A stretch of 63,904 nucleotides of DNA, filler included, from an uncultured bacterium (GTDB lineage Bacteria; DAOPZR01), in assembly GCA_964637655.1 (NCBI GenBank). It is 7 parts of 7 records of this genome, joined end to end, with 100 filler letters (N's around TTAATTAATTAA, not from the genome) between each part and the next. Parts side by side here need not be neighbours in the genome. Positions count along the whole stretch, not along the records: positions 9,519 to 18,903 come from CAZWUZ010000150.1; 6 more parts are not named here. One strand, given 5' to 3'. This document shows positions 3,176-32,308 of the stretch, piece by piece. The translations under genes were made by a program, and so were the position numbers. Within the stretch, counting starts at the first letter, position 1. Every line of letters starts with the position of its first letter. The notes beneath the pieces were generated by a model. It ran no database searches. It was not told the DNA's origin and saw only the letters and a program-made list of their open reading frames with translations.

Positions 3176-3449
3176 ACCAGCACCTCCTACGGGCCGCGTA
3201 CGCGCGACCTGGTCTGCAGAGGATAAAACATTACGCCCGCGCCCCTGTCAAGCGCAGGAGGCGCGCCGTGCCGGTGGCGCCNNNNNNNNNNNNNNNNNNN
3301 NNNNNNNNNNNNNNNNNNNNNNNNNNNNNNNNNNNNNNNNNNNNNNNNNNNNNNNNNNNNNNNNNNNNNNNNNNNNNNNNNCGCCGCCAAGCCGTCCATG
3401 GCAGCGGCGGCACGCTCACCTCCTGTATGCAGGCCGCCGCCAAGCCGAC

Positions 3450-3963: not shown

Positions 3964-4794
3964 TCAGCCGAACAGCGAAAGAACGTTGCGCGAGCTGAGA
4001 TTCGCCTGTGACAGCATGGCCATGCCGGCCTGACTCAGAATCTGCCCCTTCGTGTAGTTGACCATCTCAGCAGCCATGTCGACGTCGCGGATACGGCTTT
4101 CCGACGCCTGCATGTTCTCCTGGGCCACCCGCACAAAGTTGTACGTATGCTCCAGCCGGTTCTGAATCGCCCCGAGCGTGGCGCGGTCACTGGAGACCGA
4201 GTTGATCGCGTCCGACAACGCGGTGATGGCCGTTTCGGCCCCCGCCTGTGTCGCCACGCTGACCGCGTTGATCCCCAGTCCCGTCGTCGACATCGAACCG
4301 ATGTTGAGGTTCAGCGTCTGGTTGGCACCCGCCCCGACGTGGAGCGCGACGTTGCCCGTACCGCTGGCGTATGCCCCGGTCAGCAGTTGCTTGCCGTTGA
4401 AGACCACCGTGGTCTGCATCCGGTTGATCTCCGACAGCAACTGGCTCACTTCGACCTGGATCAGCTGACGGTCCGACGCCGTGTTGGTGTCGTTCGCCGA
4501 CTGAATAGCCAGGGTCCGCATACGCTGCAGGATCAGGTGCATCTCTTCCATGCCGCCTTCCGCCGTCTGAATCAGCGAAATGCCGTCCTGGATGTTGCGA
4601 GAGGCCTGTTCCAGCCCGTTGCTCTGCGTGCGCAGTTTTTCCGAAATCGCCAGCCCCGCCGCGTCATCAGCGGCGTGGTTGATGCGATATCCGGACGACA
4701 GTTTTTCCAGCGACTTCTCCATCGCACTGTTGGTAAGATTCACCTGACGATGCGCGAAAAGCGCCGGAAGGTTGGTTTGAATTCTGAAGGACAT
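3964..4794 (-). CDS. fliC: Flagellin 3 (276 aa, minimal D0/D1 type)
   Basis: EKLSSGYRINHAADDAAGLAISEK and ESRIRDVDMAAEM motifs. Confidence 0.96.
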   Translation of the reverse strand: MSFRIQTNLPALFAHRQVNLTNSAMEKSLEKLSSGYRINHAADDAAGLAISEKLRTQSNGLEQASRNIQDGISLIQTAEGGMEEMHLILQRMRTLAIQSANDTNTASDRQLIQVEVSQLLSEINRMQTTVVFNGKQLLTGAYASGTGNVALHVGAGANQTLNLNIGSMSTTGLGINAVSVATQAGAETAITALSDAINSVSSDRATLGAIQNRLEHTYNFVRVAQENMQASESRIRDVDMAAEMVNYTKGQILSQAGMAMLSQANLSSRNVLSLFG

Positions 4795-8027: not shown

Positions 8028-9338
8028 CTATTTCAGGAAACTCATCAGGGATAGACTGAAGATGCGCGCCCCGGCCGACAGCGCCGCCTGCTGCATCGTT
8101 TCGAACTGTTTGAGCTGCATGATGGCGTCGGCCATATCGGTCTCGCTCGCCTCCTGCAGCAACTGCGTCGTCTGGATCTTGTAGTCGGTCAGCCGGCTTT
8201 CCTTCTGCTCGAGCCGGTTCTGCCGGCCGCCCGTCTCCGCGCGCCACAGCAGCAGCCCTTCGAGCGCGTCGTCAAGCAGGCCGAGGTCCTCGCCGCTCAA
8301 CCGCGCGGCATTGTCGCTGTTGAGATCGTCGCGGATCTGAATGAGCAGGCGGAAGGAGGTCATCTTGACCTCGGTGGCGGTCGCCGCGACATTGTCGGTG
8401 TAATTGCCGTCCGCGTCCAGCGCGGCGTTGCCGTTCACCACCTGCAGATCGTTGAGCAGTCCTTCCCGCACCGCCGTGGCGCCGTTGCGGTCGACATCCT
8501 GCAGCCACAACTGCCGCGGGTCGCTCGAGGTCAGCACGAGGCGCGACGCCCCCGGCACCGTGGTGTCGACTGACGCCTGCACGCCGGCGCCCGCGCCGTT
8601 GATGCGCGCCACCACCGCATTGAGCGAATCGACCGTCGTATCGTAGTAGATGTTCTTCCCGTTGACGCGGAAGTAGCCCTGGCTGGCGCCAACGGCGGCG
8701 TCAAGTGTCGCCGTCTCGTCCGCCACCGCCAGCCCCGCGGTCACGCGGTGGTTACTCACCTGGAACAGTTCGTCGCCGATGACATTGACCTGCAGGCGCA
8801 CGTTTTCGTCCACCTCGCGGTAGACCGCGTTGCGGTCGCTGCGGTAGACGACATCCGTAATATTTCCCGCCGCGTCGGTCACCTTGCCGAACGGCGACTC
8901 GTTGAACGTGCTGTTGAGCGTTTCGTTGCCGCCGAACAGGTAGCGGCTGCCATGCTGCACATTGGCGGTGTTGACCAGTTCGTCGAGCAGCTGGTCGACC
9001 TCGCGCGCAATCGCCTGGCGGTCGAGCGCGACATTGCTGTCATTGGCCCCCTGCACCACCAGCGAGCGCACGCGCTGGTAGATGCTCCCCACCTGGTCGA
9101 GGGCATTGTCCGTCGCCATCAGCCAGTCCTTGGCCTCGGTGATATTGGCGAGGTACTGCTCCGTGCGCGTGATGTCGCTTTTGTACCACATGGTCTGGTG
9201 CGTCGCCACCGGGTCGTCCGAACTGTAGCGCAGCTTGCTCCCCGAGGAGATCTGGTAGTTGAGCAGGTCGATGCTGTCGAGGTTGCTGTGCAGATTGCTG
9301 AGCACCGTGCCGTAGATGCTGGCGCTGGTCACACGCAT
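8028..9338 (-). CDS. flgL: Hook-associated protein FlgL
   Basis: QISSGSKLRYSSDDPV, RYLFGG and C-terminal QQAALSAGARIFSLSLMSFLK. Confidence 0.93.
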   Translation of the reverse strand: MRVTSASIYGTVLSNLHSNLDSIDLLNYQISSGSKLRYSSDDPVATHQTMWYKSDITRTEQYLANITEAKDWLMATDNALDQVGSIYQRVRSLVVQGANDSNVALDRQAIAREVDQLLDELVNTANVQHGSRYLFGGNETLNSTFNESPFGKVTDAAGNITDVVYRSDRNAVYREVDENVRLQVNVIGDELFQVSNHRVTAGLAVADETATLDAAVGASQGYFRVNGKNIYYDTTVDSLNAVVARINGAGAGVQASVDTTVPGASRLVLTSSDPRQLWLQDVDRNGATAVREGLLNDLQVVNGNAALDADGNYTDNVAATATEVKMTSFRLLIQIRDDLNSDNAARLSGEDLGLLDDALEGLLLWRAETGGRQNRLEQKESRLTDYKIQTTQLLQEASETDMADAIMQLKQFETMQQAALSAGARIFSLSLMSFLK

Positions 9339-9418: not shown

Positions 9419-9518
9419 NNNNNNNNNNNNNNNNNNNNNNNNNNNNNNNNNNNNNNNNNNNNTTAATTAATTAANNNNNNNNNNNNNNNNNNNNNNNNNN
9501 NNNNNNNNNNNNNNNNNN

Positions 9519-9680
9519 TAGCAGATTCCCCAACAGCAGCAATTCCAGCCATGCGCGTGCAGCAACCGCTCCCTGAGGCAGAATGAAATAGATATTCGCA
9601 ATTGTGTAGCACAGCAGCGGTACCTTGAACAACACCATGCCCCAACGAATGCCGGCGCCCCGCAACATATCCTTAGTCAT
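9519..9680 (-). CDS. Membrane protein, truncated tandem paralog of 9673-10671
   Basis: GAGIRWGMVLFKVPLLCY...WLELLLLGNL is near-identical to the N-terminus of the upstream gene. Confidence 0.65.
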
Positions 9681-10671
9681 TGTTGCTTTCCGCTCCGTAT
9701 GGAACCACCGCATCAGTCGATGCCATCTCGCACCACAGACGGCTGCGTCGCACCAGCAGCGGTCCAGTAGCTACTGTTCCCACCACTACGCCACCGGGAA
9801 CCGCTTCAATCGCAGATAAAAAGGCAGACCCGCCCATGAGCGGCAAGAGCGGGACATGCGCAAGCGGGGAAAGCATGTGATCGAAAGCCAGCGTGAATAC
9901 GAGCACGTTGTCCAGCAACGCGATTAGCCACCCGCCAAATACGGCGAATCCCACGCTCAGGAACCACAGTCCGATTTCGCTGCGCGTTGCCAAGCGGTGT
10001 TCCGCTGTCCGTGCCAAAACCCGCCCGACCGTTGCCGCAAGCACATAGTTGATCACCATGATCCCGGCTGTCAGAAACAAGGACACTGGAAACAGGTAGT
10101 CGACCTCGAAATCCGCGAGCAAAACAGCGATGGCCAGCAACACCGGCAAAACCGCCAGCAGCACGCATCCGGTTCCCATCACGCGGCCGATTACGGCAGC
10201 GAAACGGTCCGCCTGACCTGCGCCGCCTGCTGCTGAATGTCTGCCTATCCCGATAAGCAGTGTGTAGCCGGCAAAGAGTCCGGCAATCGCACCGTGCAGC
10301 GCTACCATAACCGCCCCGGGGACCGTAACTGTGCACGAGGACATGTCGTACGGCACAGGCAGCGGCAGCATCGCCAGTGACAACGTGTCAACGCCTGCCG
10401 TAAGTATCCCAATTGCAACCGCTGCGGGCAGCACCCATTTTCCCACAGCAGATAGTTTCCATTTTCCGCCGCGCGGCAGAAACATTTCCACACACCAACC
10501 GGCGCCATACGCCACTATCAGATTCCCCAACAGCAGCAATTCCAGCCATGCGCGTGTAGCAACCGCTCCCTGCGGCAGAACAAAATAGATGTTCGCCACG
10601 GCATAGCACAACAGCGGCACCTTGAACAGTACCATGCCCCAGCGTATTCCTGCGCCGGCGCAGTTCATCAT
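9673..10671 (-). CDS. Hypothetical polytopic membrane protein
   Basis: Many hydrophobic segments; the start overlaps the stop of the upstream gene. Confidence 0.65.
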   Translation of the reverse strand: MMNCAGAGIRWGMVLFKVPLLCYAVANIYFVLPQGAVATRAWLELLLLGNLIVAYGAGWCVEMFLPRGGKWKLSAVGKWVLPAAVAIGILTAGVDTLSLAMLPLPVPYDMSSCTVTVPGAVMVALHGAIAGLFAGYTLLIGIGRHSAAGGAGQADRFAAVIGRVMGTGCVLLAVLPVLLAIAVLLADFEVDYLFPVSLFLTAGIMVINYVLAATVGRVLARTAEHRLATRSEIGLWFLSVGFAVFGGWLIALLDNVLVFTLAFDHMLSPLAHVPLLPLMGGSAFLSAIEAVPGGVVVGTVATGPLLVRRSRLWCEMASTDAVVPYGAESNND

Positions 10672-12155
10672 CTGCTTTTTGCCTCAAGCAGCTGCCGCAG
10701 CAGGTTGCCATGCAGTGCGCGCCAGGCGGTGTAGCCGCCATACACCACCTTGACGTCGGGACGGCCGGCATGGGCAAGCCGGTAACCGGCGGCAAACGAA
10801 ATCATCCCCGTGCCGCACATCAGGATGACTTCGCGATCGCGCGGGATGCGCCGCCAGTACCGCTCAAACCATACCGGCGACCACTCAACTGCCGTCGGAA
10901 TGCTCGCCGACAGCATCCGCTCATAGGGGAAGCGGATATCGATCAGGAACGTGCGCGGCGACTGCAGGCGCGCGGCATCGAGATGCTGCGGATCGAGGTA
11001 CGCGAGGCCCGGCGGATCGGAACGGGTGATGCGCTGCAGGACCTTCAGGACGTAGCGCAGATCGGCCGCCGTCGTGGTGCGCCCCATGCTGAGCCGGAAC
11101 GACGACAGCGCGGCGGCCGCATCGATTCCCATCCCGAGCAGCACATGCGACGGTTCCACCCGGTCGGCAGTGCAGGCCGAGCCGATCGAGACACTTACCG
11201 TGTAGCAGTCGAGTCCGGCAAGGAGCCGCACCCCCTCCTTCCCCGGGAACGTCAGATTGACGGTGCCCGGCAACTGGTGTACATCGTCCGCTGCGTTGAC
11301 GATAACCCCGGGATGGGCACGACGCAGCGCGGCCAGAAACTCCATACGCAGTCGGCGCAGCCGCGCGAGTTCCTTCTCCCGGCACGATGCCGCCAGCGAC
11401 GCTGCCACACCCAGTCCGACGATCTGCGCCACCCCTTCCGTGCCGGTGCGCTGCCCGCGTTCCTGATCGCCGCCGGCCAGCAGCGGCTGCCACGGGGTCG
11501 TGCCGCGCCAGTAAATCGCACCGGCCCCTTTCGGACCGTTGATCTTGTGCGCGGTCAGCACGAGGAATTCGCAGCCGAGTTCGTCAACAGCTGTGGCAAT
11601 CTTGCCGAACGACTGCACCGCATCGGTATGCAGCGGGATATTCCGTTCCCGCGCCAGCGCCGCAATCTCCGCCAGCGGCTGGATCGCCCCCGTTTCATTG
11701 TTGGCGTGCATCACCGAAATGAGTATGGTGTCCGGCCGGAGCGCCGCCCGCACCGCGTCGACCGTCACCCGCCCGTCGCCTGCCGCCGGCAGGTACGTCA
11801 CCGCCCCGCCGGCCGCCTCGACCTGCCGGCAGGCGCCGAGCACGGAATCGTGCTCGATTTGCGTCGTCACGATGTGTCCGCGACTGCCGGCCGCACGAAA
11901 CACCCCCTTGATGATCGCGTTGTTCCCCTCGGTCCCGCCGGAAGTGAAATATACCTGTTCCGGGCGGCAAGCCAGCGCCGCCGCTACCTGCCCGCGCGCG
12001 CTTTCGACCAGTCCGCGCGCCGTCCGCCCGTGGGTATGCAGCGATGACGGGTTCCCGTGCTGCTGTGCCAGCACGCGCCCCATCGCCTTGCGCACAGCCG
12101 GAGCCACCGGCGTCGTCGCGTTATGATCGAGGTAGACATCCCTGATCCAGAGCAT
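10668..12155 (-). CDS. Class I cysteine desulfurase (NifS/IscS type) fused to a C-terminal rhodanese domain
   Basis: YLDHNATTP, FTSGGTEGNN, HTDAVQSFGK, AHKINGPKG (PLP lysine), SIGSACT (catalytic Cys). C-terminus LIDIR...ILMCGTGMIS...VYGGYTAW is rhodanese-like. Confidence 0.88.
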   Translation of the reverse strand: MLWIRDVYLDHNATTPVAPAVRKAMGRVLAQQHGNPSSLHTHGRTARGLVESARGQVAAALACRPEQVYFTSGGTEGNNAIIKGVFRAAGSRGHIVTTQIEHDSVLGACRQVEAAGGAVTYLPAAGDGRVTVDAVRAALRPDTILISVMHANNETGAIQPLAEIAALARERNIPLHTDAVQSFGKIATAVDELGCEFLVLTAHKINGPKGAGAIYWRGTTPWQPLLAGGDQERGQRTGTEGVAQIVGLGVAASLAASCREKELARLRRLRMEFLAALRRAHPGVIVNAADDVHQLPGTVNLTFPGKEGVRLLAGLDCYTVSVSIGSACTADRVEPSHVLLGMGIDAAAALSSFRLSMGRTTTAADLRYVLKVLQRITRSDPPGLAYLDPQHLDAARLQSPRTFLIDIRFPYERMLSASIPTAVEWSPVWFERYWRRIPRDREVILMCGTGMISFAAGYRLAHAGRPDVKVVYGGYTAWRALHGNLLRQLLEAKSR

Positions 12156-12167
12156 CGCTACTCCTCC

Positions 12168-12806
12168 TTACCAGACCAGCGGAATGAAACGGTAACGCAC
12201 CTGCTGCCGGTAGGCGCGATACGCCGGGTCGCGGTCGAGGAACCGTTCCTCCAGCAACGCCCGCCAGACATAGCAGGCACTCGACAGCACGACCACCGTC
12301 ACAGTCCACGGCGTGCAGTGCCCGACAACATAGCCGAGCCGCAGCATGATATCCGTCAGGTACATCGGATGCCGCACGATACGATACAGGCCCTGCGTCC
12401 GCACCTCGCGCAGGGCGACCAGTATGCCGAAGCTGCGTCCGAGATTCAGCAGCGTGATAATTCCCAGCAGGTTGGCTGTGAGCGTTACGGCCCGCGCAAC
12501 CGCTGCCGTCTGCGCATCGCCGGTCGGCATCGTGCCGGGGAGCAGTACCGCCGACAGGACAGCAGCCAGCGCCACGGCCTGATGCCACGGTGACGGATCG
12601 AGCGCGCGATGATCATGGCGCAGCAGGAACAGCGCGGCCAGCACACAGCTCTGCACGATGAAGGAACCGGTAACGATATCGAATGAGCCGGCTTGCCACG
12701 CCGCTGTTCCCTGCCACAGCATGCCGCCGGCAAAGGTGAAAAACAGCCAGATGTTCACCACCTGCTGCCGGCGCGACCGCGGGACCGGAACGGGAGCGAC
12801 ACTCAT
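12168..12806 (-). CDS. ICMT/PEMT-family membrane methyltransferase-like protein
   Basis: LGRSFGI...TQGLYRIVRHPMY...RALLEERFL...YRAYRQQVRYRFIP; ATGA overlap with the upstream gene. Confidence 0.8.
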   Translation of the reverse strand: MSVAPVPVPRSRRQQVVNIWLFFTFAGGMLWQGTAAWQAGSFDIVTGSFIVQSCVLAALFLLRHDHRALDPSPWHQAVALAAVLSAVLLPGTMPTGDAQTAAVARAVTLTANLLGIITLLNLGRSFGILVALREVRTQGLYRIVRHPMYLTDIMLRLGYVVGHCTPWTVTVVVLSSACYVWRALLEERFLDRDPAYRAYRQQVRYRFIPLVW

Positions 12807-14227
12807 GCGCGTATCCCCGGCGTCATTGTCTGCCGGCGCACATTGCGCACGCAGGCGGGCAGCAGTGTTCCGTCCGCCTGCGGATACGCCTGGCAGCAGC
12901 GGCGCACGCGCGCCAAATCGAAGGTGGCAGCATCCTGAAAGGCATGGATGAATATCGATTTTATCCTGCGTTCCGCCAGCACGAACGCGCGCCGCGGATC
13001 GAAACCGCCGCAGCAGGCGGAGTCGCCCAGTTCGCGCATGATGCCGCGCAGCGTCGCCAGCACCTTCTCCCCCTCGGGCACCGCGCCGACCGGTCCGCTC
13101 CACAGGTTGTAGACGAGATCGCGCAGCCGTTCGTGTTCGTCCGGCGCCAGCCCGAAGACAACGCGGTTGGCGATGGTGTCGAGCAGCGTTTCCGCATCAG
13201 TGAGCCGCGCCAGCGGCACGCTGCCGCCATCGTCGAGCATCAGGTAGAACGCCAGCGAAAAGCAGAGCGGACTGCTGCACGGCAGCGGCACGAAGTCGGC
13301 GGCGTTCACCCGCGGGTTGCCGCATGCTGCCAGCCTCGCCACCACGTCGGGTATCGTCAGGCGCACCGTGTCCGGCAATGCCGCCGCGCGGCCGGTGAGG
13401 GCCAGCGGCTGGATCATCATGCTGATGATTTCCGGGTGCGCGAAATAGTAGTCGAGCACCGGGCCGAACTGGTCGTCATTGATCCCCGCACCCACGGTCA
13501 TAGTCAGTGACACAGTCGCCCCCGCCGCGCGCAGGCGCTCCAGCACCGCCATTTTCTGCGGGTGCAGTTCCCGCCCGCGCAGCGCGATATCGGCAGTCGT
13601 GCTGAACCCGTCGAACTGCAGCGAAACGACAACTCTGCGGCGCGCCAGCTCATCCGCCAGTCCCGGCTCGGCGAGCAGGCGCAGCCCGTTAGTCGACAAA
13701 CTCACGCGGACGATTTCGGGACGCGCCAGCGCCGCATCGATAAGCGCCAGCAGCTGCGGATGCAGCAGCGGCTCGCCGCCGGACAGGTTGAGCAGGTCAA
13801 TCTGTCCCTCGGCGGCCAGCAGCCGGTCGAGCATGCCGGTAAACTCGGCTGGCGACAGGTCCCCGGAAGTTGTGCGGCCGGAATCGTTGAGGCAGATCGG
13901 GCAGGCGAGATCACAGCGTGCGGTAATCTCGATGATCGGCATGCACAGATGCTGTTCGTGCCGCGCACAGAACCCGCAGCCGTCCGGGCAGGCGGCACCC
14001 GCATCACCCGCGAACGCACGCGGAGTCCAGCCCGGCTTGGCGATCCGCTGGGTGCGCAGGTACTCCTCCGCGGTGGCGCGCACGCGCACACGTGACTCGC
14101 CGTGTGCCGGACAGTGCTTGCGGAACCACACCCCGTCGGCATCGCTCTCCACCCGTGCCGGCAGCAGCATGGCACAGGCCGGGCAGGTCGACCAGGTCAT
14201 GCCGAGCACCCCGCGCTCCGCGACCAT
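12803..14227 (-). CDS. Radical SAM enzyme, Tes/GDGT-MAS (MJ0619)-like, copy A
   Basis: N-terminal STCPAC...KHCPAHG; CPDGCGFCARH; radical SAM CDLACPIC; SGGEP; LQFDG; CSSPLC; C-terminal FDLARVRRCC...LLPAC. Confidence 0.82.
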   Translation of the reverse strand: MVAERGVLGMTWSTCPACAMLLPARVESDADGVWFRKHCPAHGESRVRVRATAEEYLRTQRIAKPGWTPRAFAGDAGAACPDGCGFCARHEQHLCMPIIEITARCDLACPICLNDSGRTTSGDLSPAEFTGMLDRLLAAEGQIDLLNLSGGEPLLHPQLLALIDAALARPEIVRVSLSTNGLRLLAEPGLADELARRRVVVSLQFDGFSTTADIALRGRELHPQKMAVLERLRAAGATVSLTMTVGAGINDDQFGPVLDYYFAHPEIISMMIQPLALTGRAAALPDTVRLTIPDVVARLAACGNPRVNAADFVPLPCSSPLCFSLAFYLMLDDGGSVPLARLTDAETLLDTIANRVVFGLAPDEHERLRDLVYNLWSGPVGAVPEGEKVLATLRGIMRELGDSACCGGFDPRRAFVLAERRIKSIFIHAFQDAATFDLARVRRCCQAYPQADGTLLPACVRNVRRQTMTPGIRA

Positions 14228-15252
14228 CAGCGCGGTTTCACCGAGCAGTGGAATTCACGCAGCTGCCGCAGGCGCGGCCGCATTCGCATGCTCTCCGCGA
14301 ACCCGCGGCACGACGTCCAGCACTGCCCGCACTGCTTCGCCTGCTGCACGGCATACAGCCGCGCGCGCAGTTCGTCAATGCCGTCAGTCAAAATGGATCC
14401 GACCGGTTCGTCAAGCATCTCCGTGCAGCGTGCCACCCGGCCGCGATGGTCGATGTTGAGCAGCAGGCGCCCGGTCTGGCAGTTCCCGATGCCGCCGTCG
14501 GCGACCGCCCGGTCCATCTGCTCGAGGTAGCTGGTCAGCGAGATGAATTCGGGATAGCGGCGTTTCAGGTCGAGCAGGTGTGCCGTCACGCGCTGATGCG
14601 GCAGCCGCCGCGCCTTCGCCCCGCGGTTCCACGAGTAGAGATTGACCATGTAGGTGACGTCCAGTTCGCGCGCCAGCCGCAGCAGCGGCTCGATCTCATC
14701 GAGGTTGTCATCCATCAGCACCGTGATCATATGGACGCGATTGCGGCGGTCGGGTCGCGCCCGGTGCAGCAGCTGCAGCGCGGCGACCGCGCGCTCCCAC
14801 GAGCCGGGACAGCCGCGCTGCGCGTCATGTTTCGCCGGGTCGCGGTAGTCGACCGACACGGATATTTCCTGCAGGCCCGCCTGCAGCAGCGACTGCGCGC
14901 GCGCCGCGTCGACATGCCAGCCGTTGGTGATCAGGATGGGAAAATGGCTGGCGGTGTTGAGCAGGGCGATGATCTCCTCGAGATCGGTGCGGATGAGCGG
15001 CTCGCCGCCGGCCAGGGAGACGATCATCGTCCCCAGCCGGTTCAGTTTCCGGCCGATCAGGCGCACGTCGTCGAGCGTCAGTTCCTGCGCCGGGTCATGT
15101 GCCGTCTTCCAGAAGTCGCAGATCTGGCAGCGGAAATTGCAGCGGTAGGTCACCTGCAGGTTGCAATGCACGAAGCGGCCGCGCATGAATCCCCAGGCCA
15201 GCCGGGCACAGCGGTACTGATAGTGCAGTTCCCGGGTAAGCGCGCTAGGCAC
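14227..15252 (-). CDS. Radical SAM enzyme with SPASM/twitch-like C-terminus
   Basis: CNFRCQIC, GGEP, ITNG; CQTG...G.VARC...CGQCWTSC. Confidence 0.85.
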   Translation of the reverse strand: MPSALTRELHYQYRCARLAWGFMRGRFVHCNLQVTYRCNFRCQICDFWKTAHDPAQELTLDDVRLIGRKLNRLGTMIVSLAGGEPLIRTDLEEIIALLNTASHFPILITNGWHVDAARAQSLLQAGLQEISVSVDYRDPAKHDAQRGCPGSWERAVAALQLLHRARPDRRNRVHMITVLMDDNLDEIEPLLRLARELDVTYMVNLYSWNRGAKARRLPHQRVTAHLLDLKRRYPEFISLTSYLEQMDRAVADGGIGNCQTGRLLLNIDHRGRVARCTEMLDEPVGSILTDGIDELRARLYAVQQAKQCGQCWTSCRGFAESMRMRPRLRQLREFHCSVKPR

Positions 15253-16276
15253 GGGACACCGCCGGGGTCAGTGACCGCCACGCCCGCGCTTCGCCCAGTG
15301 CCGCCAGCGGATGCCGCTGGAAAAGCGACAACCCCATATGACAGAAGATGCGGCACTGCTCCGCGCAGCCGTTGTAGCTGCCGCTTCTGCGCGCCGCTTC
15401 CGCCAGCGCGGCACGATAGCTTCCTGCCGCCAGCAGGTCGACCGTCGCCGGTCCCGTTTCCAGGCAGGGATAATAGAGCCTGCCGTCGGGACGCACCGTC
15501 GGGATGAGCAGCGGGTGGCAGGCGAACGCCTGCCGGTCGCGCAGCCCCTGCAGGTACGGCAGAACTCCCAGCACCGCACCGCCCTGCCGCTTGGCGGCGA
15601 TCACCGCGTCGAGCAGCGCACGGTAATCGGGATCATCCTCGAGCCCCGGCACCGGCTGCCGGCCGTCGAGCGCCGGCGAGAGATGGAACCCGATCCGCCG
15701 GGTCAGGCAGAAGTCGAGCAGTTCCCGGGTGTCGGCAAGATGGCCCGGCAGCGCCACGGCGCTTACGGCCAGCGTGGTGCCGGTCTGCGCGCGCACACGC
15801 AGGGCATACGCAAGCGAGTCGCGCAGCTGCTCCGCCTGCGCGACGGTAATGCCGCTGATGCGCGCCTGCTGCTCCGGCCGCAGCGCATCGAGGCCGAGCA
15901 CGAGCACGTCGGTAAGACGCAGCAGGTCAGGCCGCGCATGCAGCTGCAGCGGCCGCGTGTTGAGCACCGTGCGCATGCCCTGCTGCCGCGCATGCGCCAG
16001 CAGCAGTTCGAGATCATCGCGCAGGGTCGGCTCGCCGCCGGTGAAATCAACCGTATCGGTCGCTGCCGCCATCAGGCTGAGCAGCCGGCAGGCGTCGGCT
16101 GTGCCAAGTTCGACGACCGGGGTTGCCGCAAACGGTTGCCCGGCACCGTCGGAACAGAACCGGCAGGCGCAGGTGCAGCGGTGTGTCACGTAATACGACC
16201 AGAGGAGCGGCCGCACGGGCTGACGCCCCGCCAGCAGGCTGAGCAGGTTCCCCGCGTAGTTCCGCAACGACTTCAT
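15245..16276 (-). CDS. Radical SAM enzyme with SPASM/twitch-like C-terminus
   Basis: CTCACRFC, TGGEP; CHP...PDGRLYYPC...CAEQCRIFC. Confidence 0.85.
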   Translation of the reverse strand: MKSLRNYAGNLLSLLAGRQPVRPLLWSYYVTHRCTCACRFCSDGAGQPFAATPVVELGTADACRLLSLMAAATDTVDFTGGEPTLRDDLELLLAHARQQGMRTVLNTRPLQLHARPDLLRLTDVLVLGLDALRPEQQARISGITVAQAEQLRDSLAYALRVRAQTGTTLAVSAVALPGHLADTRELLDFCLTRRIGFHLSPALDGRQPVPGLEDDPDYRALLDAVIAAKRQGGAVLGVLPYLQGLRDRQAFACHPLLIPTVRPDGRLYYPCLETGPATVDLLAAGSYRAALAEAARRSGSYNGCAEQCRIFCHMGLSLFQRHPLAALGEARAWRSLTPAVSRA

Positions 16277-16854
16277 GCGGACATTTCTTTCGCCGGCAGC
16301 GGACGCGCGGGCACGCCCGCCACCGTCAGTCCGTTGGCAACGTCGCGGGTCACCACCGCGCTGCAGCCGACCGTCACCTCCGCGCCGATGCTGACCCCGG
16401 AGCGGACCGTGGCAAACGCGCCGACCACCGCACCGCGCCCGACCCGCACGCGTCCGAGCCGGAACCCCGTCGCCGTGTATTCATGCGCCAGCAGCCGGCA
16501 TTCCATGCCGAGGAACGCGTCATCTGCCAGTTCGATCAATTCCGGCATGACCGGATCGAGAAACACCCCGGGCGCGATATAGACATCACGCCCGATCCGC
16601 ATCCCCAGCGCCCGGTAGAGCGCGATTTTCAGGAACGAGAGCGGGGTCATGCGCGCCAGCGCCGCCACGACGTAGCGCGCATGGAAGCGCAGCCAGTCGC
16701 TGACAGTGATGAACAGCACCGCGCAGACGCAGTAGGCGTCGTCAGGTTCGCGATCGTGACGCGGCAGCAGCAGCGGCCGGGTGCGGTCGCCGGCCAGAAA
16801 CGCGGTGAATTCCGCCCGCTCGGCCTGCCAGCGTGCGCTACGTGGTCGGGACAT
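16273..16854 (-). CDS. Hexapeptide-repeat (left-handed beta-helix) acyltransferase
   Basis: GMRIGRDVYIAPG...VRVGRGAVVGAFATVRSGVSIGAEVTVG...VVTRDV...VAGVPAR. Alternative start at 16866. Confidence 0.85.
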   Translation of the reverse strand: MSRPRSARWQAERAEFTAFLAGDRTRPLLLPRHDREPDDAYCVCAVLFITVSDWLRFHARYVVAALARMTPLSFLKIALYRALGMRIGRDVYIAPGVFLDPVMPELIELADDAFLGMECRLLAHEYTATGFRLGRVRVGRGAVVGAFATVRSGVSIGAEVTVGCSAVVTRDVANGLTVAGVPARPLPAKEMSA

Positions 16855-18253
16855 AGTAGCGTTCATCCTCCATCCGGTAGATAAGATTGTAAGTGCAGGC
16901 GGGGATCAGGCGTCCCGGGGTCGCCGGCACCAGGTCGGGACAGGTCATCGCCCGGCTGCAGTCGAACGTGTCCTCGTCCATGTGAGCGTGCACGTAGACC
17001 GTGCGCACGCACGCATCGCTCAGCTGCTGGCGCGCGAACGCGCTCAGTTCCCGGTCCGCCGGGTACAGTTTCTCGACGATGCCGCGGAACACGCGCAGCG
17101 CCTCCGTCTCGCCGCGCGCGTAGAGCTGGTTGAGCCCGTCGCGCAGCAGCTGCGCATCGTCGTCGAGCCGGATCAGGTACGAATCGCGCATCAGCGCGAG
17201 CAGGCGGTCGCGCGGCACGCAGCGGGCCAGCGGCAGGAAACGGTCGCCGTCCTTGAGGAAGTAGGCGGTCAGATAGCAGAGCGGATGCGCGGACGGGCGC
17301 GGCAGGAAATCATCGATGGCCAGGCGCCCGCCGGAATGGCTGCATACCGTTGCCGCCGCCTCGTCAACCGGCAGATGCCGGCGTTCCGGCCACTGACCGC
17401 CTCCCTGCCCGGTATAGGTCATCGTCTGCACGGTGTAACTGAGAATGCTGTCATACTGCCGCATCAGCTCGAGGATGTCGCCGGCCGCCGCTTCGTTCAC
17501 GCCCGGGATCATCACCTGCAGCAGGGTCATCTTCACCCCCGCGCGGGTCAGGTTGTCGATGGCCCGCAGTTTGCTGCCGACCAGGTCGCGCCCGTGCAGC
17601 CGCCGCGACACCTCCGGGTCGAGCGTGTTGAACGAGAGCACCACGTAGACCCCGAGTTCCGCCAGGCGCGCGCAGAGGTCGGGATCTTCGGCCAGTTTCA
17701 GGCCGTTCGAGTTCATGGTGATGCGCCCGATCTCCGGACGCCGGCAGACGGCAAGGAGTTCTGTCAGTTGCGGATGCAGGGTCGGCTCGCCGCCGGTGAT
17801 GTTGATCAGGTCGACCGAGCCGGCGGCGGCGACGATCCAGTCGACCGTTGCCTGCATTTCCGCCACCGGCATGAAGTACTTCCGGTCGGGACGGTTGTAG
17901 GTGAAACAGATCGGGCAGTCGAGGTTGCAGGCGTTGGTGATGGAAAAGACCGGCAACTGGCAGGGGCTGGCATGCCAGGTGCACGGGCCGCAGTCGTGCG
18001 GGCAGCCGCGGCGCGGCGGCTGCGCCTGCGGCAGCGGCGCACGATCAGGAACCGACGCCAACGCCTGCCGCAGATACCACTCCGCGCTGCCGGCAATTTT
18101 CGCCGGCTGCGTGGTGCACGTCGGGCAGAGCGCCTGCTGCCAGACCGCGCCGTCGCGGAAGAATACCCGCGCCGGCACGATGGTGCGGCAGGTGCGGCAC
18201 ATCCCGCGCACCGTGGTGAAGTAGGTTTCCGCCTTCTCGTCAAGCCGCGGCAT
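16838..18253 (-). CDS. Radical SAM enzyme, Tes/GDGT-MAS (MJ0619)-like, copy B
   Basis: GMCRTC...LCPTC; GCPHDCGPCTWH; CNLDCPIC; TGGEPTLHP; AHPLC; C-terminal FDCSRAMTC...LIPACTYN. Confidence 0.82.
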   Translation of the reverse strand: MPRLDEKAETYFTTVRGMCRTCRTIVPARVFFRDGAVWQQALCPTCTTQPAKIAGSAEWYLRQALASVPDRAPLPQAQPPRRGCPHDCGPCTWHASPCQLPVFSITNACNLDCPICFTYNRPDRKYFMPVAEMQATVDWIVAAAGSVDLINITGGEPTLHPQLTELLAVCRRPEIGRITMNSNGLKLAEDPDLCARLAELGVYVVLSFNTLDPEVSRRLHGRDLVGSKLRAIDNLTRAGVKMTLLQVMIPGVNEAAAGDILELMRQYDSILSYTVQTMTYTGQGGGQWPERRHLPVDEAAATVCSHSGGRLAIDDFLPRPSAHPLCYLTAYFLKDGDRFLPLARCVPRDRLLALMRDSYLIRLDDDAQLLRDGLNQLYARGETEALRVFRGIVEKLYPADRELSAFARQQLSDACVRTVYVHAHMDEDTFDCSRAMTCPDLVPATPGRLIPACTYNLIYRMEDERYYVPTT

Positions 18254-18683
18254 GCAGTTCCCGCCAGAGCAGGCGCCGTCGCCCGGCGTCGGCATATTCG
18301 TGCAGCGCTGCCAGCTGCACGGTCAGTTCGCCGTCGGCCAGCGGACCGCCGCCGCTCGTCACCGTGCACGCGAGTGTCAGTTGTTCCGCCGTGCGGCCGC
18401 TGACAGTCAGCGTCGCTTCCAGCAGCGCACCGCGCCCGGCAACCGCGGCAAAGCGGAACTGCCCGACCCCGGCAAGCAGGCAGCACTGCTGCCAGTCCGA
18501 GCCGGCCATGACCAGCCACTGCGCCAGGTCGACACATGTGCCGATGATCAGCGACTCGGGATACTCACCCTTGCGGCCGAACGGCTTGTACAGCGAGTAT
18601 TCCTCGAAGGATACCGCCTTGCGGCCGCTGATCGCCTGCCACGGTGTCAGCGCGTCGATGCGGTCCACCAGCCGCCAGCGCAT
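18240..18683 (-). CDS. FabZ/FabA-like hotdog-fold dehydratase
   Basis: MRWRLVDRI...ISGRKAVSFEE...YPESLIIG: FabZ-like, but divergent at the usual catalytic positions. Confidence 0.7.
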   Translation of the reverse strand: MRWRLVDRIDALTPWQAISGRKAVSFEEYSLYKPFGRKGEYPESLIIGTCVDLAQWLVMAGSDWQQCCLLAGVGQFRFAAVAGRGALLEATLTVSGRTAEQLTLACTVTSGGGPLADGELTVQLAALHEYADAGRRRLLWRELHAAA

Positions 18684-18903
18684 CAGATGCCGCCGTCCAC
18701 GAACAGGTTCTGCGCGTTGATGTACGACGCGCGGTCGCTGACGAGGAACGCCACCATTTCCGCCGCCTCCGCCGGTTCGCCGGGCCGGCCGGCGGTGCAG
18801 TACTTCATGTATTCCGCCAGTTCGCGCGGCGGCACCATTTTCCCCACGCCCTCGGTAAGCAGTCCCGGCACCACGGCGTTGACCCGGATATGATAGCGCG
18901 ACA
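18683..18903 (-). CDS. FabG-like short-chain dehydrogenase, C-terminal fragment
   Basis: IRVNAVVPG...GRPGEPAEAAEMVAFLVSDRASYINAQNLFVDGG. Confidence 0.82.
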
Positions 18904-19003
18904 NNNNNNNNNNNNNNNNNNNNNNNNNNNNNNNNNNNNNNNNNNNNTTAATTAATTAANNNNNNNNNNNNNNNNNNNNNNNNNNNNNNNNNNNNNNNNN
19001 NNN

Positions 19004-19808: not shown

Positions 19809-22800
19809 TCACCCCTGCCGCGCCATGCCAAGCGCCTGGAACTGCCCGGCGACCTTGTTGGCGAACTCGTCAAACCCGCCGGTAAAGCCGGCGCCGCGCA
19901 GCGCCCGGTCAACCGACTCGAAGTTGCCGGTACCGGTAACGTCGGCCCCCTTGATGATGTTCATTCCGCGCTCCATTTGCGGCGTCAGGTTGCCGACCCG
20001 GTACCCCTGCTGGCGGTAGCCGCCGCGCACGGCGTTGAGCGTGCTGACCGCTTTCTGCGCCTGCGCCACCCCCTCGAGTCGGGGCGCGCTGTGTCCCGGT
20101 TCGATCCCGGTCATCTTCTGGTGCCACATGTTGCCGAACTGCGCGGGATCGCGGAGTGTCGACTTGCCGCGGATGACATTGACGATGTTGGAAATCTGCC
20201 CGTTCTGCGTCGCGTAGTCGGGGCTCGCCTCGATGTCGAAGCGGTCGGTGGCGCGCCAGTTCAACTGCTGCAAACTGTTGCCGCCCGACAGCCGCCCGAT
20301 AATGCGGTTCGACTGGTTGCGCCACAGGTCGGCGGACACCTCGCGCCACGTCCCGTCGGGATTCTGCATGGTGACGCGGAAATCGCGGTCGGCGCCGACG
20401 GCCGAGCCCGCCTTGTGCGGGGTGGAGAACGACTCGACGCGGACAACCCGGCCGCGATAGTCAGGGAGCGAGCGCACGAAATCGACCAGTTCGCGGTCAT
20501 GCGGCTGCACCAGCGTCTGGTTGTAGGTGCGCAGGAAGCCCTGCTGCACATCCGGCGGCGCGGTCTTGAGCGAGCGCAGCAGTTGCGGGTCGCGCTGAAT
20601 GGCGATCATGTCCGCCGCGGTCATGCGCGGCGGCGTGCCGGTCATGCGCGACACCGCATCCTTGATCGCCTGCGGCATCTTGAACTGCCAGTTCATCCGT
20701 CCCATGAGGAACTGCACGACGAGACGGTCGCGCACCGTGCGTGCCGTCTGCTTCATCGCGTCGCACATCGACATGCCGCGCGCGATGTTGGAGGCGAACT
20801 GGAACCCGACATAGATGGCCCAGGCCGCCGCCTTGCGTTCCGGCGTCTGCCCGAGCACCCGTTCGAGTATTGCCGGGTCAGTGACCATGCCGCCGACGAT
20901 AAGCGCGCCCTGTGCCACGACATCCTGCCAGTTGAGCGTCTGTTCGAGTTCGACGACAATCTCCCAGAACCAGTCGTCGACCTGGTCAAACCCGCGCTCA
21001 TAGCCGACCACCATGATGTTCTCGATCAGCGACTTGAGGATGGGCGCGCCGATGACCCCGAGCGGACCGAAGGCCACCCCGGCCGCCGCCTGGAAGACGA
21101 GGTCCGACCCCCACTTGAGGTTCTCGGTAAAGAAAAGCGCGCGGTCCTCCCACTTCTCCTGCGAGCGGTACCCTTCCGCCCCCTCAGCGAGGATCAGGTT
21201 CTGCGCAATCTTCCAGATTTTCAGGCGGAAGAGTTTGAGCCCCTCGTGCCCGAGCACCTGCGCGTGGCGGTCGATCATCTCCCGGAGACGGCTGTGCATC
21301 GGCTCGGAGACGAAGCGGATGGCGCGGTAGCAGCCGTCGCGCTCACGCCGCCAGTCCTCGCTGCCGACATCCGGCTCGACCACCTGCAGCGCCAGGGTGA
21401 ACTCCGCCGAGAACTCCGCGCGGTCCTCCTTGCCGATGACGCGCACGACCATGGGAATGGCGAAGGTCTGGCCCGGATCGCCGGGAATGAGGTCGCGGCT
21501 GCGCCACGTCCAGATGCCGGAGTTATTCTCGCCCGGACGGTCATACTTGTATTCCGGATTGGCCACGGAGAGCAGGTTGCGGATCTCCTGGGAGGGGGCA
21601 TTGTCCTCGAACCACAGGTCCTGCACGAGCTGCGTATCGGCGACAAGTTTGCCCTCCGCGTCCTTCGCTTAGACGACGTATTCGATTTCCTTGCGGATCT
21701 CCCGGTAGCACTTGTGCAGGACCCGGCCGGCGCCGGGGCGGCCGCGCGGCAGCACGACCAGTCCCTCGCGCGCGAGGATGACGGGGAGAATGCGCTCGAG
21801 TTCCTTGTCACCCTGCCGGGCGAAGATGTGCAGTTTGGTCGTTACCGACGCGCCGCTCACCCCCTCGGGCGAGGTCGCAGGCGGTGTCACCGCCACTTCG
21901 ATGACGCCCGGGGTCGCGGTCTCCGTAAAGCCGGTGCTGCCAAGCTGCTCATTGTCGAGCGTAAGTTCCCACTGCCACGGTTCGCTGCCGGGATTGGTGA
22001 GGAACGCCTTGAAGGTCACCGGCGTGTTCTCGCCCTGAATGAGCGTAACGGTGTCGGGGCGGAGATCGACATCGAGTTCCGGCAGGCCGAGCAGTTCGAG
22101 CGACGCCGTCGCCGACAGTTCCTGCTCCCCGGCGGTCGCGCTGATGCTAACGGTGACCGGACTCGGCGGCTGGCGGGTGACATCGCTCCCCTGCGGGTCG
22201 GAGGCCTCGAGGGCGACGGCGGTCCACGTCGCGTCCCAGGCGACCGGGTCGCTCATATCGAGCCATTCGTTCCCCTTGCTGAACGAGATGGTCGCCGTAT
22301 CGCAGGGATTCTCGGTGCCGTCGGCGGCGACGAGCACCACCTTCGCCTTGAGCACCGCCTGGTCGCGCCCGTCAGGAACGATGGCGCGTTTGCCCCCGTC
22401 GAATTCGTGCACCAGTTTCGGCTCACCGCCGATGAGCACGGTGCAGCGCGCGGAGGCCGACACGCTGCCGCCCGGCGTCGGCGCGCTCGCGTGCAGGGTC
22501 AGCGCGTAAGCTCCGGCCGCGAGGGTGGTCAGGTCGATTTCGTTCATCGTCAGGGTGAGGGTACGGGTCGCGCCCCCCTGGCTGTCGTCAGCAACGCTGA
22601 ACCATTCCGCCGCGCCGCCGGCGACACTGAAATTCATCGCCCCGGCCGCCGCCGCGGGATCGCCTTCCGGATCGTTCGTGGTCACGGTAAATGACGCGGT
22701 GAACGACGCGCCCGGTTTCCCGTCGAGCCGGGCCGGGCCGCCGCTGCCATGCAGCGCCCAGCGCGGCGGTTCCGGTTCCTCCGCCTCTTCGCCGTCGAGC

Positions 22801-23903
22801 GGCGGCACCAGCGGCCCGACGGCGCCGCCGACGCCCGGCGGCAGCCCGCGCACGCCCGCTTCAAGCGCACCGTCCGAAGTGATCCAGCCGCCGAGGTTCG
22901 AGCCGGATTCCCGCCAGCCCCCGTCATCCGCCCACGCCGCTTCGGTGAACAGTACGGAAAGGAAACCGTAGGCGGCAGCGGTCGCCGTGCCGAGGATGAG
23001 CAGGCCGGCGACCGGGGCCGGCGGCTGCGCCGGCGGTACCGCGCCGCGCAGAAAGACAAAGGCGCCATAGAGCAGGGCCGCACCGACGAGGAAAGCGAAC
23101 GCCGCCTGTGACAGCGCCAGCCCGGCATTGATGATGCCGCCGGTCAGCGTGCTGACATCGAACTGGACGAGCAGGATGCCGGCGAGCAGGAAACCGGGCG
23201 CCAGCCCGGCGATGACCCCGCGCAGCAGTTTCAGGTTGAGCGCCGTGCGCGCGAATCCCTGCTGCCCGAGCCGCGCCACCGAGCGCGACCACGCGGCCGA
23301 GAGAAACATCGCCAGCAGATAGCCGGGGCGCGACATGCCGAAGAACGTCAGCCCGAGGGCGAGCGAGAAATTGGCCGGCGTGTTGAGGCGCGGGATGATG
23401 CCGAAGGTAACGATGGTGACGCCGGCGAGCACCGCATTGAGCGTCAGTGCCGCCCCGGTGCCGAGCAGAAAGGCGCCGCGACCCGGCCGCCCGTTGGCGG
23501 TCGCCTGGCGGTAGAGCAGTACCGGGCGGGTAAGGAAATGCGTTATGGCGCCAAGCGGCCCCATACGGAAAACCGAGGTGAGCAGCGACCAGAGAAGCGC
23601 CGACGAGAACCCGTAGAGCAGGAACGAGGAGATGGCATTGCCCGAGACGTTGAGAAACGGCGAGAGCCAGGTGTCGGGGGCGAACCCCTCATTGGCATAG
23701 ACGACCAGAAACGTGTGGATGAGCCAGGTGACGATGAAAATGAAGCCCATTACCGGGAGACGCGGCAGCAGGTAGCGCAGGAGCATCCCCGGCAGCATCT
23801 TGAGGGCATCAGTCGCCCCGCCCCCGAACGCGGCGATGAACGCCTCGGCCGAACCCGGTTGCGGACCGCGACCGCCGGCCGGCGGCTGCTGCGGAGTTGT
23901 CAT
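19809..23903 (-). pseudogene. Large membrane-anchored protein (~1364 codons) interrupted by one in-frame TAA at 21669-21671
   Basis: ORFs 21669-23903 and 19809-21626 share a frame and read EIEYVV*AKDAEGKLVADTQLVQDLWF across the stop. Confidence 0.65.
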
Positions 23904-32304: not shown

Positions 32305-32308
32305 CCGC

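Follow-up and report, generated by a model that had tools for sequence, protein, structure and literature searches.

The best-described relatives of the proteins considered here are the archaeal Tes/GDGT-MAS enzymes, represented by MJ0619 of Methanocaldococcus jannaschii and its structures 7TOL and 7TOM. Section 2.1 of PMC13459092, the part of that 2026 review on which we draw for this enzyme, describes four metal centres in Tes and a mechanism that includes a carbon–sulfur (C–S) cluster adduct. According to the consulted portions of the same review, nearly all lipid modification by radical S-adenosylmethionine (SAM) enzymes concerns isoprenoids; the sole ketoacyl cases proposed are the Jaw5 product and ladderanes. 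The bacterial Tes homologues have been proposed as the makers of branched glycerol dialkyl glycerol tetraether (brGDGT) biomarkers. Here we analyze a stretch of 63,904 bases of DNA from an uncultured bacterium (hereafter, the window), one contig of which carries genes for two Tes-like proteins, TesA and TesB, in an operon with two smaller radical SAM enzymes. This contig is the downstream part, the back two-thirds, of a conserved bacterial cluster of about 16 genes, in which the pair is accompanied by its own chain-building genes. By analogy with GDGT-MAS, we propose at a probability of roughly 45% that TesA and TesB would carry out carbon–carbon coupling or ring closure on the dedicated chain.

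Alignment to MJ0619, a check suggested by the first-pass annotation of this DNA, shows both proteins to be full-length relatives of GDGT-MAS. In phmmer searches, TesA matches 7TOL over residues 11-464, and TesB matches it in two stretches that jointly span residues 31-483 (E values in Table 1). An AlphaFold (AF2) model of TesA, with a predicted local distance difference test score (pLDDT) of 84.9 and a predicted TM-score (pTM) of 0.88, superimposes on 7TOM in Foldseek at E 5.7e-37, with TM-scores of 0.81 for the query (TMq) and 0.78 for the target (TMt); the next fold in the PDB reaches a TMq of 0.38. TesA and TesB are 30.6% identical to each other and 25% and 24% identical, respectively, to a true Tes. 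The closest relatives of TesA are 89% and 82% identical, and the next are at most 65% identical.

The metal ligands were compared in an alignment of 35 TesA and 30 TesB orthologues with one protein that passes the Tes model (L039). The sites match the four centres described for Tes in the section cited above. The N-terminal cluster motif CxxxCxxCxxH (C80/C84/C87/H90 in TesA, C98/C102/C105/H108 in TesB) and the radical SAM motif CxxxCxxC (C105/C109/C112 and C123/C127/C130) are invariant in all 35 and all 30 sequences, as are three cysteines of the C-terminal cluster (C322/C444/C459 and C340/C452/C467), a centre that in Tes is liganded by three Cys and one Met; these three Cys columns are common to the true Tes. 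The rubredoxin-like site, which in Tes has three Cys and one His, comprises C15/C18/C39/H42 in TesA; its cysteine columns are kept in 34-35 of the 35 sequences, and the fourth ligand is His in 27 and Cys in 6. In TesB, the equivalent site is C33/C36/C57/C60, with the cysteine columns kept in 30/30. Since the fourth position is Cys in 25 of these 30, TesB represents a four-Cys variant (CxxC...CxxC). The earlier statement that both copies show the Tes motif positions is thus correct for the Cys and His positions of these sites, except that the N-terminal site of TesB does not read CxxC...CxxH. Each clade also has invariant cysteines of its own, namely C95, C317 and C445 in TesA and C112, C184 and C208 in TesB; C445 has a counterpart in MJ0619, where it forms part of a CC pair, and none in the true Tes of the alignment.

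Placement within the superfamily sets the two proteins apart from Tes. On the Tes equivalog NF045702 (cut-off 450 bits), TesA scores 198 bits and TesB 167 bits, and the best NCBIfam model for both is that of TrsS (NF045646, cut-off 490), at 249 and 182 bits. Their orthologues in five cluster-bearing genomes score 136-213 bits on the Tes model, as against 577 bits for a true Tes in one of these genomes (G004), and no protein in the five exceeds the TrsS cut-off. The superfamily is large, an exhaustive HMMER search returning 5312 representatives at E ≤ 1e-3, 1403 at ≤ 1e-10 and 324 at ≤ 1e-30. A FastTree phylogeny was built from 163 sequences, which comprised both proteins of the window, 95 representatives out of the best 150, and 66 proteins from the loci described below. 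Because representatives were limited to 425-600 residues, the other 55 were left out. TesA forms a clade of 41 sequences (support 0.97) and TesB one of 33 (0.96), and the midpoint split (0.988) separates both from the two proteins that pass the Tes model, L039 (577 bits) and P0249 (481). The proteins that pass the TrsS model, P0207 (515 bits) and P0215 (595), stand beside true Tes and apart from the TesA and TesB clades, and the four sampled representatives on the TesA/TesB side of the tree fall below both the Tes and the TrsS cut-offs. The label "Tes-like" given earlier is therefore apt for full-length relatives with all of the cluster motifs, and it does not extend to Tes proper, either by the NCBIfam cut-off or by position in the tree.

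Identity with TrsS was also considered for TesA and TesB, and was rejected on the 490-bit cut-off and the tree. TrsS is a radical SAM (seleno)protein; by comparison, the TesA and TesB open reading frames (ORFs) contain no in-frame stop codon. On the function of TrsS, our literature searches gave nothing beyond a table row in the available part of PMC13188914. A third, solitary gene of the Tes superfamily, outside the TesA and TesB clades, was seen in two of the cluster-bearing genomes, at G002:C1:65971-66897 and at G005:C1:340048-341391 (L041/L053), and the L041 protein groups with representative P0176.

Structure prediction supports the binding of TesA and TesB to each other as a heterodimer. 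The models of the complex gave ipSAE scores of 0.89, 0.89 and 0.90, against 0.10 for the best control; the mark applied to this score is reached by 58 of 80 solved complexes and by 2 of 110 mismatched pairs, counts that hold only roughly here because our own alignments were used as input. The runs have at least 79% of their contacts in common, and the partner pLDDT is at least 87. In the predicted interface, the two chains meet through their rubredoxin-like and N-cluster regions at the N-terminus, and residues 438-443 of TesA and 445-451 of TesB, which lie beside the C-cluster ligands, would contact the rubredoxin-like domain of the other chain. Since 7TOL and 7TOM hold one chain each, no like complex has been deposited as such.

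A search restricted to one genome for each species yielded 74 matching stretches; 41 of these encode a relative, and 38 loci resulted. These are labelled Planctomycetota (including one Kuenenia metagenome-assembled genome, or MAG, and one Brocadiia), Victivallales, Verrucomicrobiota, Elusimicrobiota, Nitrospirae, Deltaproteobacteria/Desulfobacterales, Leptospiraceae and "Candidatus Zipacnadia", together with an unclassified MAG and a metagenome chromosome. Genes were counted by tblastn with the window proteins and with the neighbours found in locus L025. TesB accompanies TesA in 33 of the 38 loci, and the remaining five are cut upstream by contig ends. Where at least 9 kb of upstream sequence is present (24 loci), TesB is found in every case; a ketosynthase (KS), a nitroreductase, an acyl carrier protein (ACP) and a FabG-like ketoreductase (KR) are each found in 23, and a FabA-like dehydratase, a short KS-like protein (chain-length factor, CLF) and the hotdog (FabZ-like) protein in 22. 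The first-pass annotation had expected ACP and KS genes beyond the contig end, an expectation borne out by these 23 of 24 loci. Of the signs that it had named against its own reading, clustering away from Tes, which it had coupled with the lack of a hydrophobic lipid pocket, is what the tree displays, whereas lack of a conserved neighbourhood is contradicted by the 38 loci.

Downstream, the cluster is more variable. Among the 31 loci with at least 3.5 kb of downstream sequence, the hexapeptide transferase and the 341-residue radical SAM enzyme each occur in 21, the 343-residue radical SAM enzyme in 18, and the ICMT-like methyltransferase and the NifS-rhodanese protein in 12 each. All members of the nine-gene set originally listed for the window are present in it, but these last two are accessory parts of the cluster. 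The exact nine-gene order of the window recurs in six loci and the order TesB-transferase-rSAM343-rSAM341-TesA in 11, and TesB directly adjoins TesA in 14.

Some loci carry further genes. An extended form of the cluster includes a class III aminotransferase in 5/38 loci (L025, L005, L011, L017 and L034) and, in 4/38 (L025, L011, L017 and L034), a fifth radical SAM gene of the SPASM type; in L025, these additions lie at 13512-16030. The one aminotransferase copy scanned, that of L025, has as its best model PigE of prodigiosin synthesis, at 398 bits (cut-off 850). Other variable neighbours have a lipid flavour (L001:11427-12521, L001:13221-15119, L002:11444-12538 and L033:12777-14093); they comprise an APP1-type phosphatidate phosphatase, an Lnb-N/DUF7840 protein, a CrtC/Svf1 lipocalin-like protein and a B12-binding radical SAM protein.

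The only true Tes among the five cluster-bearing genomes searched (L039/L054, at G004:C142:26924-28399) lies in a MAG labelled Kuenenia stuttgartiensis, and it is surrounded by HEAT-repeat, Ser/Thr kinase, MutL and UvrD genes. Around it on this contig, neither an ACP or KR gene nor a Tes-like partner was found, and one KS-like ORF (387 residues, opposite strand) stands about 6.5 kb off. Many long overlapping ORFs on the contig suggest a high GC content, so it may be a binning contaminant.

What kind of chain do the upstream genes build? In L025, Pfam searches identify a small membrane protein, a FabA-like dehydratase, a CLF-like inactive KS, a KS, a KR, a nitroreductase-family flavoprotein and an ACP. 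The dedicated type II fatty acid synthase branch envisaged at first needs correcting: the chain-building genes of the relatives include a KS/CLF pair in the style of a type II polyketide synthase (PKS). The hotdog protein that remains in the window had been called FabZ-like. It has the FabA/FabZ fold, with matches in the ESM Atlas of 0.98 to FabA-like and ApeI/ApeP-like clusters, but the catalytic His is lacking in all 24 orthologues, in which the column holds P, A or R (P34 in the window copy). The Glu column is E in 21/24, the window copy having G48. In the upstream FabA-like gene, the dehydratase His is kept in 22/23. Loss of the His in the one and its retention in the other fit a division of labour in which the hotdog protein is probably a non-catalytic partner of the FabA-like dehydratase in a heterodimer.

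The two smaller radical SAM enzymes share one architecture, CxxxCxxC followed by five C-terminal cysteines, and belong to the twitch/SPASM class. In the 343-residue enzyme, C34/C38/C41 together with C253, C271, C304, C308 and C312 are kept in 19-21 of 21 sequences, and its matches in the PDB are to the generic core only. In the 341-residue enzyme, C38/C42/C45 with C258, C276, C308, C311 and C315 are invariant in 25/25; its best NCBIfam model is the PTO1314 family (109 bits, cut-off 306), and the best folds for its AF2 model (pLDDT 85.6) are BlsE (TMq 0.69), MoaA, SkfB and anSME. The hexapeptide transferase has an invariant H128 (24/24) and as its best NCBIfam model heptaprenylglyceryl-phosphate O-acetyltransferase, at 98 bits (cut-off 300). 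In the ICMT-like protein, R143-H144, Y147 and E184-E185 are kept in 15/15, with weak NCBIfam matches to isoprenylcysteine O-methyltransferase, LmtA and MddA (E 0.0055 for MddA).

Sulfur-transfer genes are frequent partners of the pair. Of the 31 clusters for which sufficient downstream sequence is present, 24 have a rhodanese gene; such genes take two forms. The first, in 14 loci, is the NifS-rhodanese fusion of the window, in which the pyridoxal phosphate Lys K204, the desulfurase Cys C328 and the rhodanese Cys C447 are kept in 13-14 of 14 sequences; it scores 395 bits on the NifS equivalog model (cut-off 530). ICMT and NifS-rhodanese occur together in 13 loci, ICMT alone in one and NifS alone in one. 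The second form, in 13 loci, is a protein of about 440 residues that is anchored in the membrane at its N-terminus and combines a rhodanese domain with a polytopic one, the latter containing conserved cysteines that include a Cys-rich Cx5CxxCx7C stretch. Its gene directly follows TesA in clusters that lack NifS-rhodanese and ICMT (L012:11405-12727, L033:11401-12735 and 11 further loci), and no family match besides the rhodanese domain was found for it. Among the cluster neighbours annotated, there is no gene for an iron–sulfur scaffold of the IscU/SufB type.

We can now set out how the cluster might work. The dedicated KS/CLF–ACP system, the gene content of which is observed, would build a carrier-bound acyl or polyketide-type chain with the help of the FabG-like reductase and the His-less hotdog protein. 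Acting as the predicted heterodimer, TesA and TesB would each cleave SAM and abstract hydrogen at an unactivated sp3 position of the chain; the resulting radical would be parked on a sulfide of the C-terminal [4Fe-4S] cluster, which would serve as a radical trap; these steps are drawn by analogy with GDGT-MAS. The two twitch/SPASM-class enzymes may perform further C–C or C–H chemistry, the hexapeptide transferase may move or cap the chain, and the ICMT-like enzyme may methylate a carboxyl or a thiol. Persulfide sulfur from NifS-rhodanese might keep the sulfide-donating clusters intact. Our preference for C–C coupling or ring closure as the outcome stems from retention of the complete Tes ligand set. 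The lipid-related neighbours of some relatives, the APP1-type phosphatidate phosphatase and the CrtC/Svf1 lipocalin-like protein, also favour action on a lipid-like chain.

Several observations weigh against this proposal. TesA and TesB fall under the Tes cut-off (198 and 167 bits vs 450) and lie on the opposite side of the midpoint root from Tes and TrsS; given these scores and this position, the Tes reaction can be transferred to them only by analogy, across about 25% identity. Cysteines C95 and C317 of TesA and C112, C184 and C208 of TesB are absent from the true Tes compared, and such clade-specific invariant residues may signal a different chemistry. The chain-building genes are absent from the window, where 73 residues of a KR and the hotdog protein are all that is left, and no member of the cluster has a known product. 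The high score of the complex may reflect a homodimer-type interface common to the paralogues, and no TesA-TesB fusion was found among 13 long representatives (561-981 residues), each of which holds one Tes module. Finally, rhodanese genes in 24/31 clusters, with no scaffold gene, fit delivery of sulfur to a product at least as well as repair of the clusters.

This last point leads to the alternative that survives best. In place of a completed C–C coupling, sulfur derived from a cluster or a persulfide might stay on the chain, much as in the reactions of LipA, BioB or MiaB, with NifS-rhodanese as the donor and the ICMT/MddA-like enzyme methylating the thiol; the product would then be a thiol, a thioether, a methylthio lipid or a lipoate-like cofactor. 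The frequency of rhodanese-domain genes, the co-occurrence of ICMT and NifS-rhodanese (both in 13 loci) and the want of an IscU/SufB-type gene in the annotated clusters all point this way, as does the formation of a substrate–sulfur adduct by GDGT-MAS under limiting SAM (section 2.1 of PMC13459092, as excerpted). However, 7 of the 31 clusters have no rhodanese gene in the flank fetched, ICMT is present in only 12/31, and the MddA (thiol S-methyltransferase) match, with its E value of 0.0055, amounts to 16 bits against a cut-off of 270. The full Tes ligand set is also kept, and sequence cannot separate a sulfur donor from a radical trap. Because of the rhodanese genes, the ICMT/MddA-like methyltransferase and the C–S adduct of GDGT-MAS, we regard sulfur retention as a serious option, though an unlikely one. 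Rather doubtful is its more specific form, in which TesA/TesB would be a lipid-directed radical sulfur inserter, the persulfide of NifS-rhodanese or of the membrane rhodanese would load the C-terminal cluster, and the sulfur would then be thioether-bridged or S-methylated. Were this true, the products would form a new class of bacterial sulfur lipids, and TesA and TesB would be the first enzymes of the Tes family to retain the C–S intermediate as a product.

Another possibility, which we hold to be improbable, is that the product is no lipid, but a short polyketide-derived specialized metabolite tailored by the radical SAM enzymes and akin to cispentacin or to a prodiginine precursor. The KS/CLF pair is as in type II PKS, the KS of the relatives matches the cispentacin AmcF model at 221 bits (cut-off 325) and their FabA-like protein matches AmcE at 39 bits. 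The class III aminotransferase (5/38 loci; PigE, 398/850 in L025) stands beside the SPASM radical SAM gene (4/38), and the scattered occurrence across many phyla suggests that this biosynthetic cluster is mobile. Against this, all of these model matches are under their cut-offs, Tes-fold enzymes are so far known for long lipid tails only (in the consulted text of PMC13459092), and the cluster has membrane-embedded partners (the ICMT-like protein, the small transmembrane protein and the rhodanese-polytopic protein) as well as lipid-related neighbours.

Could TesA and TesB instead couple the tails of ordinary phospholipids, as for iso-diabolic acid or brGDGT, with neighbours that are unrelated or that merely supply precursors? 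Bacterial Tes homologues have been proposed as brGDGT synthases (PMC8941075, in the excerpt available), the accessible parts of 10.1101/2024.06.25.600576 and 10.1101/2023.10.20.563219 report homologues of Tes, GrsA and Gms in many MAGs of Planctomycetota, and Gms, as a radical SAM enzyme of the SPASM/twitch type, falls in one broad class with the 341- and 343-residue proteins. However, TesA and TesB lie outside the Tes clade and under its cut-off, and they come with their own KS, ACP, nitroreductase and KR in 23/24 loci and with a CLF in 22/24, whereas the sole true Tes found in the five genomes searched sits in an unrelated neighbourhood. The small radical SAM proteins, at 341 and 343 residues, are also shorter than the floor of 400 residues used in the Gms survey, which required E 1e-80 or better to Tg-Gms and a length of at least 400 residues. 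Our literature searches gave no biochemical test of any bacterial Tes homologue. Given that this clade comes with chain builders of its own and that the one true Tes found sits elsewhere, coupling of the brGDGT type fits it poorly, and we consider it quite improbable.

A part in ladderane synthesis is close to excluded, given the distribution of the cluster and the different gene lists of Kuenenia. L006, a MAG labelled Kuenenia stuttgartiensis, and L030 (Brocadiia) do hold rSAM343-rSAM341-TesA, L006 with ICMT and NifS-rhodanese in addition, but 36/38 loci are labelled as groups other than Kuenenia or Brocadiia. To our knowledge, those other groups are not anammox bacteria, hence not ladderane producers. 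Radical SAM enzymes are favoured candidates for ladderane formation (PMC13459092, in the part consulted), but the Kuenenia clusters kuste3603-3608, kuste2802-2805 and kuste3335-3352 differ from ours, and none is given with four radical SAM genes and a NifS in the available portions of PMC4790861, PMC2649909 and 10.64898/2026.05.19.726425. Correspondence with the Kuenenia clusters that Rattray 2009 and Javidpour 2016 describe was likewise rejected, since the gene lists differ. Maturation of a ribosomally synthesized and post-translationally modified peptide by the SPASM/twitch enzymes is just as improbable: the small radical SAM proteins resemble SkfB, anSME, SuiB and PqqE in fold and NCBIfam matches, but the conserved partners are ACP, KS and KR genes, and no precursor-like small ORF was seen, the small conserved ORF that heads the clusters of the relatives, checked as a candidate precursor, encoding a two-helix membrane protein.

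Irrespective of the exact chemistry, one large group of bacterial Tes homologues occurs as a conserved pair that is linked to dedicated chain-building genes, and this group spans Planctomycetota, Victivallales, Elusimicrobiota, Nitrospirota, Desulfobacterota and Leptospiraceae. The cluster points to a product other than coupled bulk phospholipids; if so, tetraether producers may be fewer than metagenomic counts of "Tes homologues" suggest. A cluster with four radical SAM enzymes acting on an ACP-borne chain would also widen the isoprenoid-centred picture of radical SAM lipid chemistry. Being compact, at about 16 kb, and carried by MAGs assigned to Victivallis vadensis (L026 and L028), the cluster makes the question look directly testable; V. 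vadensis is a cultured species. The first-pass annotation knew of no characterized cluster of this make-up, and our literature searches, which did not cover supplementary figures that possibly show bacterial tes-gms clusters, found no paper describing it. These superfamilies are not new, but the pairing of the Tes-like clades, the link to KS/CLF–ACP genes and the sulfur-transfer partners are, as far as those searches went, not previously described.

At least seven contigs make up the window, with spacers of the form N44-TTAATTAATTAA-N44 between them at 9419-9518, 18904-19003, 28370-28469, 37811-37910, 47245-47344 and 56519-56618. Because the contigs are joined in this way, genes across a spacer are not neighbours. 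There are further gaps within the window, two scaffold gaps of 100 N (3282-3381 and 37248-37347) and one of 10 N (62614-62623). The whole cluster lies on a single 9.4-kb contig (9519-18903), with every gene on the minus strand (Table 1); gene names follow Pfam and NCBIfam searches. The ORFs confirm nine co-oriented genes that mostly overlap or abut, as first described. Most junctions are overlaps of 1-8 bases, with a gap of 12 bases ahead of NifS; if the first start codon is used, the FabZ-like and TesB genes overlap by 56 bases and the TesB and acyltransferase genes by 29. The ICMT-like gene starts at the ATG at 12806, overlapping the TesA stop, and is therefore the gene of 212 codons listed in Table 1 and not an ORF of 311. 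At the upstream end, the KR fragment is 65% identical to residues 166-237 of the 237-residue L025 orthologue, the N-terminal 165 or so residues being lost at the contig end, and tblastn with the L025 proteins found none of the upstream genes on the other contigs of the window.

Table 1. Genes on the cluster contig of the window, in order of transcription; positions are those of the window.
Feature	Position	Strand	Evidence
Short-chain dehydrogenase/reductase (SDR) ketoreductase (FabG-like, "KR2"), C-terminal 73 residues	18686-18904	minus	Pfam adh_short_C2 E 2.3e-15; NCBIfam FabG-type matches
FabA/FabZ-fold hotdog protein	18240-18683	minus	no Pfam match; FabZ models 25 and 21 bits
Tes-like B, 485 residues, clade TesB	16838-18295	minus	7TOL E 5.7e-36
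Hexapeptide (left-handed beta-helix) acyl/acetyltransferase, 197 residues	16273-16866	minus	Pfam Hexapep
Radical SAM, 343 residues	15245-16276	minus	Pfam Radical_SAM E 1.7e-9
Radical SAM, 341 residues	14227-15252	minus	Pfam Radical_SAM E 4.8e-23
Tes-like A, 474 residues, clade TesA	12803-14227	minus	7TOL E 1.5e-40
ICMT/PEMT-family membrane methyltransferase, 212 residues	12168-12806	minus	Pfam PEMT 3.8e-9, ICMT 3.2e-7
NifS/IscS-type cysteine desulfurase with C-terminal rhodanese, 495 residues	10668-12155	minus	Pfam Aminotran_5 2.6e-67, Rhodanese 1.2e-8
Polytopic membrane protein, 332 residues	9673-10671	minus	no Pfam/NCBIfam match
Start of tandem paralogue of the 332-residue membrane protein	9519-9667	minus	contig end cuts the gene after about 50 codons

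The operon extends past 10668, since the gene for the 332-residue membrane protein overlaps NifS-rhodanese by four bases and is translationally coupled to it. This protein has nine hydrophobic windows of 19 residues, and its best Atlas match, at 0.85, is a lead only. It gave no tblastn match in any of the 38 loci and is lineage-specific; its similarity to the rhodanese-polytopic protein of other clusters is not significant (BLASTP E 0.23). The beginning of a tandem paralogue follows, with 89% identity over 37 residues to residues 6-42.

Elsewhere in the window, two flagellin genes (3964-4794 and 8028-9338) lie on a different contig from the cluster. A penicillin-binding protein with a C-terminal PASTA domain is encoded at 29311-31170 on the minus strand of another. 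PASTA domains are typical of Gram-positive-type lineages, and this protein, at odds with the PVC-like affinities of other genes, may reflect a mixed bin or an unusual lineage. Four ORFs have no Pfam family at E 1e-5, namely 19809-21626 (605 residues), 21669-23903 (744), 31892-34984 (1030) and 35396-36718 (440), and Rfam gave no match at gathering thresholds over the whole window.

How does the cluster compare with known systems? In its chain-building part, it resembles the KS/CLF systems of aryl polyenes (ApeI/ApeP), of anammox bacteria (amxFabF2/amxFabFmut) and of ishigamide (Iga11/12), in that an intact KS stands beside a truncated KS-like protein in the relatives, accompanied by an ACP, by one or two KRs and by two hotdog proteins, one a catalytic FabA-like protein and the other lacking the His. 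Tes-family radical SAM enzymes are not reported for any of those systems. In anammox Cluster I, their place is taken by a B12 radical SAM gene and a phytoene-desaturase-like gene (10.64898/2026.05.19.726425, in the part available). The Kuenenia "ladderane" clusters list amxACP, amxFabZ, FabF2/FabFmut, phytoene-desaturase-like and B12 radical SAM genes, or the genes kuste3335-3352, and these lists, as far as they are given in the accessible portions of PMC4790861 and 10.64898/2026.05.19.726425, contain no Tes-like pair, NifS-rhodanese or hexapeptide transferase. Mss and Gms, both radical SAM enzymes, form bonds between unactivated carbons in lipid tails. Mss is only remotely related to Tes (PMC13159169, as excerpted), and the SPASM/twitch character that Gms shares with the 341- and 343-residue enzymes is a likeness at the level of the class only. 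TrsS belongs to the same superfamily as TesA and TesB, true TrsS sitting next to true Tes in the tree. The closest comparison is with archaeal Tes/GDGT-MAS (MJ0619, 7TOL/7TOM, NF045702), with which TesA and TesB share the four-domain fold (rubredoxin-like, N-terminal, radical SAM core and C-terminal; TMq 0.81 for the TesA model), the rubredoxin-like site, the CxxxCxxCxxH N-cluster, the CxxxCxxC motif and the three C-terminal cluster cysteines. Unlike archaeal Tes, to which they are about 25% identical, TesA and TesB are bacterial, form an obligate pair of paralogues (about 30% identical) with extra invariant cysteines, and have their genes in a KS/CLF/ACP cluster rather than among those for isoprenoid ether lipids.

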